NCBI GenBank assembly: GCA_019058315.1
Contig: JAHPZH010000002.1
Span: forward strand, 480,001 to 544,000
Reading direction: 5' to 3'
DNA from: Candidatus Helarchaeota archaeon
Lineage (GTDB): Archaea; Asgardarchaeota; Lokiarchaeia; Helarchaeales; RDOG01
Length of the DNA: 64,000 nt
The translations under genes and the position numbers were made by a program. The notes under the pieces were generated by a model, which was not told the DNA's origin, ran no database searches, and saw only the letters and a list, made by a program, of their open reading frames with translations. Below are positions 50,485-52,928 of this stretch, piece after piece. The number at the start of each line of letters is the position of its first letter. The first letter of the stretch is position 1.

Positions 50485-52299
50485 TTAATCGTTTGATTTC
50501 AAAGAGATGTAATAATAATCTCCGGTTTTTTTCTGTTTTCTATCTAACTCAGAATTTAATTTGTTTACTCTTGGTCTACCTGTACGTGGGTCTCGACGAA
50601 AAGTAATATTAACATTTTTTAAAAATAGGTTCATCCCACTTTTTAGATCGATTGGGGGAGTGGAAAAACCTTTCTTTCCCGATTCTCCTGAAAATACAAT
50701 TAATGAATCACTTAAAAAATCAACAGCCAAAATATCATGTTCAACTATAAAGGCGGCTGCTTTTTTATTTTCTATAAACCTTTTTATTGTTTTTGTAATT
50801 GTTAAACGTGCATAGCTATCAAGGTAAGCTGAAGGTTCATCAAATAGATAAACATCGGCTTCTTTAGAAAGAGTATTAGCAATTGCAAGTTTTTGAAGTT
50901 CTCCTCCTGATAATTCTGTAATATATCTTTCTTCTAATTCAGATAAATTAAATGGTTTTAGAATTTGAGATTTGTAAATTGCGGTATCAAAATTTTTACC
51001 AGCTGATTCTCTTAGAAGCATTTCAACTGTGCCATCAAATTCAATATTCAAATATTGTGGTTTTAATGCTATTTTAAGTTCTTTTTCTAATGGTTCACCT
51101 ACATCAGGGGGTAATTCACCACCCAACAATTTAATAAATGTAGATTTTCCCAATCCATTTTTACCAACTATCCCTATAATTTCTCCTTTGTGAATAACTC
51201 CTTCATTAATCTTAAGATAAAAATCTCCCAGTTGCTTTTCCATTTTATTATAACTTGTTATCACTTCTGTACTTTCCCATCCTCCTGAACCTAGTGGATT
51301 TAAATGAAATCTTATAGGTTCTGTTCGAAATCGAATATTTTCATCTGGCAAAAAGCCATCCAAATAAAGGTTTATACCCTCTCTAACACCATGAATATGG
51401 GAAACAATTCCATAAACTGCTGGTTGCCCATATAGGATATGGACATAATCGCTAAGATAATCGCAAATTATTAAATCATGTTCTACAATAATTACCGTCT
51501 TTCCCAATGTTGCTAATTGATGGAGGACTTTAGTAACTTCTAACCGCTCTTTGACATCTAAATAACTGGATGGTTCATCAAAAAAGTATACATCTGCATC
51601 TCGTGCAATAACTGCTGCTATTGCAGTTCTTTGCAATTCTCCTCCTGACAAAATATTTAAGTTTCTATTCCAAAATTCTTTCAAATTTAAGGATTCTTTT
51701 AATTCATTAATTACTCCTCGCTCATTCACCTTCTCTAAAAGCTCTGATACAACACCTTTTGTAATTTCTGGTATCTTGGTTACATATTGGGGTTTATGTA
51801 CTAATTTTACTTGATTTTCTGAAATATCTTTAAAATAATTTTGAAGTTCTGAACCCCGAAAATTACGAATAATTTCATTCCATTCTGGCGGTTCTTCTGG
51901 ATGCCCTAAATTTGGCTTGATTTCTCCTGCTAGAATTTTTATGGCCGTAGTTTTGCCAGAACCATTAGGTCCTATTAACCCAATTATTTTTCCAGCTTTA
52001 ACAATTGGAAGGCGGAAAAGTACAAAACCTCCTAAATCAAATCTATGAACAAAATCACTCTTTAATTCCTCTGCTATATTTGCAATAGTAATTGCGTGAA
52101 ATGGACATTTTTTAACACATATACCACAGCCAGTACAAACATTTTCAATAATTCTCGCCTTATTAATATCCTCATCCAAAATGATTGCTTCTGCCCCAGA
52201 ACGAACTACAGGACAAAAACGTATACAAGGGACTTTTTGAGTCGGAGGAGCACATTTCTCGGGTCTGCAGCGATCTGGTTCAATTACGCCTACTCTCAA
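50485..52299 (-). CDS. rli: Ribosome recycling ATPase ABCE1/Rli1
   Basis: N-terminal Fe-S domain CTGCGICVKKCP, two ABC domains with LSGGELQ, ITFRRDP...RPRVNK. Confidence 0.97.
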   Translation of the reverse strand: MRVGVIEPDRCRPEKCAPPTQKVPCIRFCPVVRSGAEAIILDEDINKARIIENVCTGCGICVKKCPFHAITIANIAEELKSDFVHRFDLGGFVLFRLPIVKAGKIIGLIGPNGSGKTTAIKILAGEIKPNLGHPEEPPEWNEIIRNFRGSELQNYFKDISENQVKLVHKPQYVTKIPEITKGVVSELLEKVNERGVINELKESLNLKEFWNRNLNILSGGELQRTAIAAVIARDADVYFFDEPSSYLDVKERLEVTKVLHQLATLGKTVIIVEHDLIICDYLSDYVHILYGQPAVYGIVSHIHGVREGINLYLDGFLPDENIRFRTEPIRFHLNPLGSGGWESTEVITSYNKMEKQLGDFYLKINEGVIHKGEIIGIVGKNGLGKSTFIKLLGGELPPDVGEPLEKELKIALKPQYLNIEFDGTVEMLLRESAGKNFDTAIYKSQILKPFNLSELEERYITELSGGELQKLAIANTLSKEADVYLFDEPSAYLDSYARLTITKTIKRFIENKKAAAFIVEHDILAVDFLSDSLIVFSGESGKKGFSTPPIDLKSGMNLFLKNVNITFRRDPRTGRPRVNKLNSELDRKQKKTGDYYYISLKSND

Positions 52300-52360
52300 T
52301 TATTAACACCATAAAAAGTAAAAGAAATATCAAAATAAGATATAAATTTTATAAAAAGGG

Positions 52361-52434
52361 TGAGAGAAATTGTCAGAACTCATAAAGATACCATCACAAA
52401 TCAGGTTGCTCCAAGTCGTCATTCATTTCTCTCA
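52361..52434 (-). ncRNA. Box C/D guide sRNA
   Basis: 10-bp terminal stem UGAGAGAAAU/AUUUCUCUCA; box C AUGACGA (52422-16), D' CUGA (52404-01), C' UGAUGG (52396-91), D CUGA (52376-73). Confidence 0.85.
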
Positions 52435-52526
52435 TATAATGATTTCAAATATAACTTATTAAATGTATTGAATCAAATAAATCAGTAGAAAAGATAATAA
52501 TAAGATGTGTGAATAAAAATAGAAGA

Positions 52527-52928
52527 TTAAGAGCCTTTTACATTCATAATTTTCTTTTTATTGAGAATTGTCCAATACTCGGCAGTAGCTCCTTCGACAA
52601 GTTTACTTTTGATTTCCTCATCAGTTGGCATATCCACTTCAAACGTTTCATATGTGCTATTATCCATAAGTTGAACAGTATCGGGTGTTATTGATGTAAT
52701 TATACCGGTACTTTTATCTATCAGTGGAACCTCAACATTTGAATGAGATGGAAAAGTAAGGCTCCTTTTATTACGATCAAATAAACCTACACATACTACT
52801 CGAACTTTTGCGTGACCATGTTTACCTGATTTTGAAACATCAACTGAAATTATTCTGCAAGGTTCATCATTGATTAATACAAATCGATTTGCTTTTAATG
52901 ACCCTGCTGATTGTTGTTTTTTAGACAT
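52527..52928 (-). CDS. eif5a: Translation factor aIF5A
   Basis: Hypusine motif SKSGKHGHAK. Confidence 0.97.
   Translation of the reverse strand: MSKKQQSAGSLKANRFVLINDEPCRIISVDVSKSGKHGHAKVRVVCVGLFDRNKRSLTFPSHSNVEVPLIDKSTGIITSITPDTVQLMDNSTYETFEVDMPTDEEIKSKLVEGATAEYWTILNKKKIMNVKGS

Follow-up and report, generated by a model that had tools for sequence, protein, structure and literature searches.

A Helarchaeal Box C/D sRNA Beside aIF5A Predicted to Guide C34 Methylation of Unspliced Elongator tRNA-Met

Introduction

A box C/D guide within the intron of tRNA-Trp is known in Pyrococcus (sR50) and in Haloferax. The euryarchaeal sR-tMet and Pyrococcus sR49 RNAs have reportedly been the subject of studies by Clouet-d'Orval (2001) and Joardar (2011), as cited in PMC2584109, PMC4033218, PMC6601510, and PMC7994747. 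An exonic C/D sRNA directs the formation of Cm34 in intron-containing tRNA-Met; Pyrococcus sR49 is an example, and 18 sR-tMet candidates have been described in haloarchaea, Methanosarcina, Thermococcales, Methanothermobacter, and Methanocaldococcus (Grosjean 2008, PMC2584109). Their layout runs from a stem through UGAUGA or UGACGA, a variable D′ region, CUGA, a loop, UGAUGA, and [A/G]CCCUAUGAGNN to the D box (PMC2584109, supplement 5). In sR49, in haloarchaeal sR-tMet, and in the methanogens, [A/G]CCCUAUGAGNN and box D pair with CUCAUA and the intron bases ggg, and because intron bases join the guide pairing, methylation is taken to precede splicing (PMC2584109). In humans, SNORD97 and SCARNA97 guide Cm34 of elongator tRNA-Met(CAU) (Vitali and Kiss 2019, PMC6601510). 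The position-34 guides of Pyrobaculum have one tRNA target each (PMC6009581; PMC7994747), and tRNA-directed sRNAs typically combine one working guide with one targetless guide, as stated in a passage of PMC7994747 that cites Lui 2018.

The window analyzed here is a 64,000-nt stretch of a Candidatus Helarchaeota archaeon genome (contig JAHPZH010000002.1, positions 480,001 to 544,000 of the forward strand). A 74-nt gene on its minus strand, at 52361..52434, very probably specifies, judging from its sequence, a box C/D sRNA for 2′-O-methylation of C34 in the unspliced elongator tRNA-Met, its expression, RNP assembly, and methylating activity being predicted. By functional definition the gene is an Asgard member of the sR-tMet/sR49 type, at a score below the threshold of the Rfam family. 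Like the euryarchaeal RNAs (RF02163) it is stand-alone, has a variable D′ spacer, and carries a D guide that ends in UAUGAG plus 2 nt ahead of box D and so sets C34 of tRNA-Met at N+5; the 5′ part of its guide likewise pairs with the first intron nucleotides, so that it would act before splicing, and its box C, AUGACGA, has the same C-for-U variant as haloarchaeal sR-tMet. It differs from them in that the intron-pairing part is CUUU (target AAAG) where theirs is CCC (target ggg), the D spacer is 14 nt where theirs is 12, the terminal stem has 10 bp, the target tRNA gene has four introns, and the host is an Asgard archaeon. With SNORD97/SCARNA97 it has in common the role of a box C/D guide for Cm34 of elongator tRNA-Met(CAU), a likeness in function for which no homology is claimed; the human RNAs, in contrast, are intron-encoded (EIF4G2, LARP4), pair with the mature anticodon stem-loop, and cooperate as two RNAs. 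It resembles the tRNA-Trp intron guides (sR50, Haloferax) in the predicted direction of Cm34 on an intron-containing precursor, whereas those guides lie inside the intron of their own substrate and also make Um39 and here the gene is separate; the tRNA-Trp intron of the host holds no complete box set. Finally, it would be single-guide, with one arm on a tRNA and the other targetless, like the tRNA-targeting sRNAs of Pyrobaculum (Lui 2018, PMC6009581; PMC7994747), whose C34/U34 guides, unlike this one, address Trp, Gln, Val, and Thr, not Met, their targets having been sought in mature tRNAs only.

Box Architecture of the sRNA Gene

The preliminary description had reported a box C/D sRNA with four boxes and a 10-bp terminal stem, located between aIF5A and ABCE1. 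Re-reading of the minus strand and the MFE fold confirm the boxes and the stem, and Pfam confirms the neighbors, aIF5A at 52527-52928 and ABCE1/RLI at 50485-52299, both on the minus strand, so that all three genes share one orientation. From 5′ to 3′ the sRNA consists of the 5′ half of the terminal stem (UGAGAGAAAU, 52425..52434), box C (AUGACGA, 52416..52422, one deviation from RUGAUGA and preceded by GA), an 11-nt D′ spacer (CUUGGAGCAAC, 52405..52415), box D′ (CUGA, 52401..52404), box C′ (GUGAUGG, 52391..52397, one deviation), a 14-nt D guide (UAUCUUUAUGAGUU, 52377..52390), box D (CUGA, 52373..52376, followed by CA), and the 3′ half of the stem (AUUUCUCUCA, 52361..52370). A UUU of 3 nt separates D′ from C′ in a K-loop layout, and the terminal stem, whose ten pairs are all Watson-Crick, is the outermost helix in the MFE structure. 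In a K-turn reading the junction pairs G52424, before box C, with the C after box D and has a 3-nt bulge (AAU) and tandem G.A pairs. Archaeal spacers are usually about 12 nt, against 11 nt for D′ and 14 nt for D here (13 if C′ is taken one base later); the D spacer is 12 nt in the homologs of two genomes of the same order, G002 and G004. Upstream, a TATA-like box (TTTAATAA, 52456..52463, minus strand) lies 22-29 nt from the 5′ end, and a T5 run (52353..52357, minus strand) begins 3 nt past the sRNA; by their sequence the two look like a promoter and a possible archaeal terminator, and TTTATAAA occupies the TATA-box distance upstream of the G002 and G004 copies.

A relaxed four-box pattern gives three matches in the 5.79-Mb genome, one of them 52361..52434, and none in the reversed genome, which supports identification as a box C/D sRNA. 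Over the window, Rfam returns no match at the gathering score; at an E-value threshold, end-to-end sub-threshold matches appear at 52371-52426 on the minus strand, to Pyrococcus C/D families only (sR23 at 20.6 bits, sR35, sR12, and snoPyro_CD). The sR-tMet model itself, RF02163, which was built on haloarchaeal sequences and has a gathering score of 50 bits, does not match the host copy at E <= 1 and is absent from the locus at E <= 10.

The other two four-box matches genome-wide lie at G000:C5:103555-103608 (-), directly downstream of the 23S rRNA gene, and at G000:C5:56821-56871 (-), where the D guide finds 10 Watson-Crick partners in a row of the 23S extract, around position 2199 (G000 being the host genome). 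Further, a stretch near G000:C10 ~146100-146180 (-), reading AUGAUAU .. CUGA .. CUGAUGAUGA .. UUGA, may be a degenerate box C/D sRNA.

The Host Genome and Its tRNA Genes

The host assembly (5.79 Mb in 12 contigs, 30% G+C, 94% complete) yields 27 tRNAs with ARAGORN and 37 with the Rfam tRNA model, many of them within one AT-rich array on contig C3. Host tRNA genes have up to four introns, in the D loop, the D stem, the anticodon loop, and the T loop or T stem, and many are missed; those that escape both programs include the initiator tRNA (near C5:113903), the tRNA-Trp gene (G000:C6 ~125603-125383, minus), and the unspliced elongator tRNA-Met.

The elongator tRNA-Met gene, found by hand search, lies at G000:C6:124869-125068 on the minus strand and adjoins other host tRNAs. 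Splicing its four inferred introns in silico leaves 75 nt in cloverleaf form, identified by ARAGORN as tRNA-Met(cat). The anticodon (CAU) and the acceptor stem (GCCG..), together with the absence of initiator features, mark it as a putative elongator Met, the identity preferred here over tRNA-Ile2(CAU). A multi-intron tRNA at G000:C5:412295-412477 (-) has the loop CUUAUAA (anticodon UAU) and would decode AUA directly; a tRNA-Ile(CAU) was not found in the genome. For the anticodon intron of pre-tRNA-Met no canonical bulge-helix-bulge motif was found, and the intron borders used here are putative.

The C3 array, outside the window at G000:C3:627400-631900, packs about 25 AT-rich tRNA genes closely together; many of these contain introns, and they duplicate host isoacceptors. 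One member is an initiator-like CAU tRNA that has A1:U72 and GGG/CCC in its anticodon stem, and the array may be a tRNA island of mobile-element or viral origin. In three relatives (L108 of G003, L066 of G005, and L107 of G006) the D-arm intron of elongator tRNA-Met has a conserved K-turn-like motif, AUGAUG[AG]..UGACC with only about 5 nt between the boxes; in the host and in G001 this intron is a plain hairpin instead.

Predicted Pairing of the D Guide with Elongator Pre-tRNA-Met

Around its anticodon the precursor reads GCGCCGGA-CUCAUAA-AGUUAUCGG, or ..G-A-CUCAUA-A-A-G-u-U-A.., and the D guide forms with it, through the 11 nt adjoining box D, 11 contiguous base pairs, made up of one G.U (at G30) and ten Watson-Crick pairs (A31, C32, U33, C34, A35, U36, A37, A, A, G); beyond this duplex come one U.U mismatch and 2 further pairs. 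UAUGAG-UU-CUGA faces G30 A31 CUCAUA, so that C34 stands opposite the fifth nucleotide upstream of box D (a G, at 52381), and the pairing extends 2-3 nt past A37 into the predicted intron of the host's own precursor. The prediction that the D guide selects C34 of a CAU tRNA is thus supported. Given that the mature tRNA offers just 8-9 pairs, depending on whether the junction lies at 37/38 or 38/39, the precursor is the better substrate, as had also been proposed; the computed duplex energies are -12.9 kcal/mol for the elongator precursor and -10.2 kcal/mol for the mature elongator, the latter as a bulged duplex.

When the guide is shuffled, 9.4% of the shuffles reach 10 Watson-Crick pairs somewhere in a 12.2-kb set of stable-RNA genes whose introns are AT-rich, and as an any-target statistic the match is therefore weak; its weight comes from the site and from the compensatory change in relatives. 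The match falls on the one site with published chemistry of this type, and beyond the universal CUCAUA the guide fits three bases that are specific to the lineage. The preliminary description would have yielded to a genome with no tRNA complementary over at least 9 nt or to a better rRNA target. Eleven base pairs were found, and neither 23S, nor the partial 16S, nor the complete 16S of relatives (G001, G003, and G010) offers the D guide a better site, with nothing past 7-9 mixed pairs; the sole 16S match of the host (G000:C12:50-897, minus, model positions 4-828) runs off its contig, and the 3′ half of 16S is absent from the assembly. The 14-mer that the D guide targets also has two exact matches in the genome, on the sense strands of ORFs (C3:1232680 and C11:419658), and with the sRNA it counts three genomic copies, where shuffled 14-mers average 0.31 and 1.7% of them reach 3; the word encodes T-H-K-D in frame, and the two ORF copies were set aside as coding coincidence.

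The other CAU tRNAs of the genome bear on which methionine tRNA is addressed. The host initiator precursor near G000:C5:113903 reads GCAGGGCUCAUAAAUCG and would form 10 contiguous pairs with C34 at D+5, at -9.9 kcal/mol, an energy shared by the CAU tRNA of the C3 cluster (C3:630543-630636); the tRNA with anticodon UAU reaches -6.4 kcal/mol. That the initiator precursor or the cluster tRNA is the real substrate, or an additional one, in place of the elongator is nevertheless unlikely, since two of the ten initiator pairs are G.U and adjoin box D, whereas the elongator pairing, with 10 Watson-Crick and one G.U, is 3 kcal/mol better. Further, the guides of two relatives (G005 and G006) track the elongator intron sequence, and the published cases concern the elongator.

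Acting on the elongator precursor, this stand-alone archaeal sRNA would form a box C/D RNP with L7Ae, Nop5, and fibrillarin. Its D guide would bridge exon and intron by base-pairing where they meet in the pre-tRNA-Met(CAU) anticodon loop, and fibrillarin would 2′-O-methylate the wobble C34 ahead of splicing. The genome encodes fibrillarin (PF01269) at G000:C3:1273552-1274235 (E = 2e-92), and the ORF just upstream of it is Nop5-like by one motif only, a putative nop5. An alternative would have the sRNA serve, with no methylation, as a folding or splicing helper or a docking site, its D′ arm gripping GCUCCA in the same intron. The D′ spacer does have a 6-bp match to GCUCCA in the anticodon intron, downstream of the D target. 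For an 11-nt spacer against a 199-nt precursor, a 6-bp match is expected by chance in about one of four trials by our own estimate, and every homolog retains the exact D+5 geometry on C34, a point in favor of catalysis that makes the helper very unlikely.

The D′ Arm

Most likely the D′ spacer is an orphan guide. The preliminary description had tentatively assigned it to C32 of tRNA-Trp, since D′ UGGAGC is complementary to GCUCCA of a Trp anticodon loop, and a similar UGGAGC stretch occurs in the Pyrococcus sR23 consensus. The tRNA-Trp(CCA) of the host, which reads ACGGGCUCCAGA, gives 7 bp only, made up of 6 Watson-Crick pairs and one G.U, with mismatches at the three positions beside box D′ (positions 1-3), and the tRNA-Trp of the AT-rich cluster is no better match. 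Across the stable RNAs the best Watson-Crick run of this 11-nt spacer is 7, and the corresponding spacers of seven homologs (G002, G004, G005, G006, G165, G166, and G168) are unrelated to it and to one another. Methylation of tRNA-Trp C32 by the D′ guide is thus unsupported and highly improbable; the reading is close to refuted, and its revival would need a second tRNA-Trp gene that reads GUUGCUCCAAG.

Likewise, no fitting site for the D′ guide was found in rRNA (23S, the partial 16S, and the 16S of relatives). The putative nop5 ORF offers the spacer 10 nt of Watson-Crick complementarity on its sense strand, at G000:C3:1274716-1274726 (-). About 13 such 10-mers occur genome-wide, and a match of this kind is probably chance; targeting of the nop5 mRNA was rejected.

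Homologs and Covariation

Five of the order's seven genomes carry homologous sRNAs, with compensatory changes among them, and so do three genomes from other Asgard families. Within the order, the G002 and G004 copies lie 110 nt upstream of aIF5A in divergent orientation, with D guides UCUCUAUGAGUU and ACUCUAUGAGUU and the D box UUGA. With RF02163, the copies at G005:C260:10340-10403 (159 nt upstream of and divergent from aIF5A), at G006:C449:189-252, and in G004 score 31, 24.6, and 23.6 bits, respectively, all below the gathering score of the model. The sRNA of G005 (L035:1990-2085) also shows a partial tandem duplication: a 33-nt segment comprising its 5′ stem arm and box C has a direct repeat about 45 nt further upstream.

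Where both partners are known, guide and intron agree. In G005 the D guide GCCUUAUGAGUG-GUGA stands against its own pre-tRNA-Met GACUCAUAAGGUAG, and in G006 the D guide AUCCUUAUGAGUU-GUGA against GACUCAUAAGGUAAG, both with the junction GACUCAUAAGGU; in the host the guide ends ..CUUUAUGAGUU and the junction is GACUCAUAAAGU. Each of the three guides forms 11 contiguous base pairs with its own precursor, with C34 at N+5, and the second intron nucleotide and its guide partner are A:U in the host and G:C in G005 and G006, a covariation of one position in three genomes. Similarly, nucleotide 6 of the C box and nucleotide 1 of the D box, which meet in the K-turn, are G:C in the host, A:U in G002/G004, and C:G in G005/G006.

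Six patterns and inspection of candidate 5′ ends revealed no tRNA-Met gene in G002 or G004, one of the candidates being tRNA-Asn and others tRNA-Thr, and none was found by the same search in G165, G166, and G168; in these genomes the guide sequences predict the junctions CUCAUAGAGA/U and CUCAUAGGGG. A copy of the sRNA was found neither in G001, of the same family, nor in G003; the completeness of G001, G002, G003, and G004 is 82-94%. BLAST of the 86-nt locus against 60 relatives returned noise only, and its best-looking match, a 17-nt identity in G001, proved to fall on the start of an ABC ATPase gene, comprising its ribosome-binding site and start codon.

These comparisons also bear on whether the locus is a gene at all. 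Both its C and C′ boxes deviate, its spacer lengths are unusual, and no copy was found in G001, as might be expected of a chance box-like sequence or of a decayed sRNA gene with no function. Against this stand the empty pattern search in the reversed genome, the compensatory changes among the Asgard homologs, and the fit of the guide to the intron of its own genome, and chance or decay is barely credible.

Beyond these genomes, a metagenome scan for CUGA..UGAUG..UAUGAGUU-YUGA returned 120 loci, 94 with full architecture, of which 52 carry the D guide GCCCUAUGAGUU together with 37 different D′ spacers; across the 94, D′ is thus the variable arm and the D guide the constant one.

Linkage to aIF5A

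sRNA genes usually change location freely. In 400 Asgard genomes searched with a strict pattern, four-box sRNAs were found only in G000, G002, G004, G165, G166, and G168, and the sRNA adjoins aIF5A in all six; ten further pattern matches were inspected, and none is an sRNA. In G165, G166, and G168 the sRNA begins 8-20 nt past the aIF5A stop codon on the same strand. With G005 included, the linkage is visible in seven of eight Asgard copies, the eighth (G006) lying on a 3.7-kb contig. The side of aIF5A is thus an unusually stable address for an sRNA gene, and aIF5A is a conserved neighbor of the tRNA-Met-type C/D sRNA.

The same placement recurs in a second metagenome family, with the D guide AGAUUAUGAGUU and the D box UUGA, whose guide fits the mature-type target RACUCAUAAUCU; its 22 AT-rich contigs have the aIF5A linkage, and in most of them the sRNA starts 1-15 nt past the stop codon. 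The family comprises L305:4041-4107 and 21 similar loci of an AT-rich marine or sediment archaeal group. In the L305-type loci the D′ spacer UUGGAAAAGCCAU is conserved, and the D′ arm may have a target of its own.

The linkage is a further difference from the euryarchaeal sR-tMet/sR49 RNAs, being absent from about 60 euryarchaeal-type metagenome loci, and the aIF5A loci of 80 other archaea hold no such sRNA; no mention of an aIF5A-sRNA linkage was found in the literature examined. The repeated placement suggests co-transcription with the translation-factor gene, and in many lineages the sRNA starts 1-35 nt past the aIF5A stop codon. We tentatively propose, while holding it rather doubtful, that the tRNA-Met guide gene and aIF5A form an ancient, selectively kept pair, in which the aIF5A transcript would in many lineages release the sRNA by cleavage at its 3′ end, and that this pair may be older than the split of several Asgard families and common to the AT-rich marine or sediment group.

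Implications

Guidance of Cm34 in elongator tRNA-Met was previously documented in Euryarchaeota and, separately, in vertebrates. The present locus and its relatives put a predicted guide-target pair of this kind in Asgard archaea, the closest known relatives of eukaryotes, and common descent of the archaeal and eukaryotic systems thereby becomes easier to test. In these genomes ARAGORN and the Rfam tRNA model miss tRNA genes that have three or four introns, and guide RNAs offer a way of locating such genes. Finally, the pairing of the sRNA with aIF5A, if true, would couple the supply of a tRNA guide to the expression of a translation factor.
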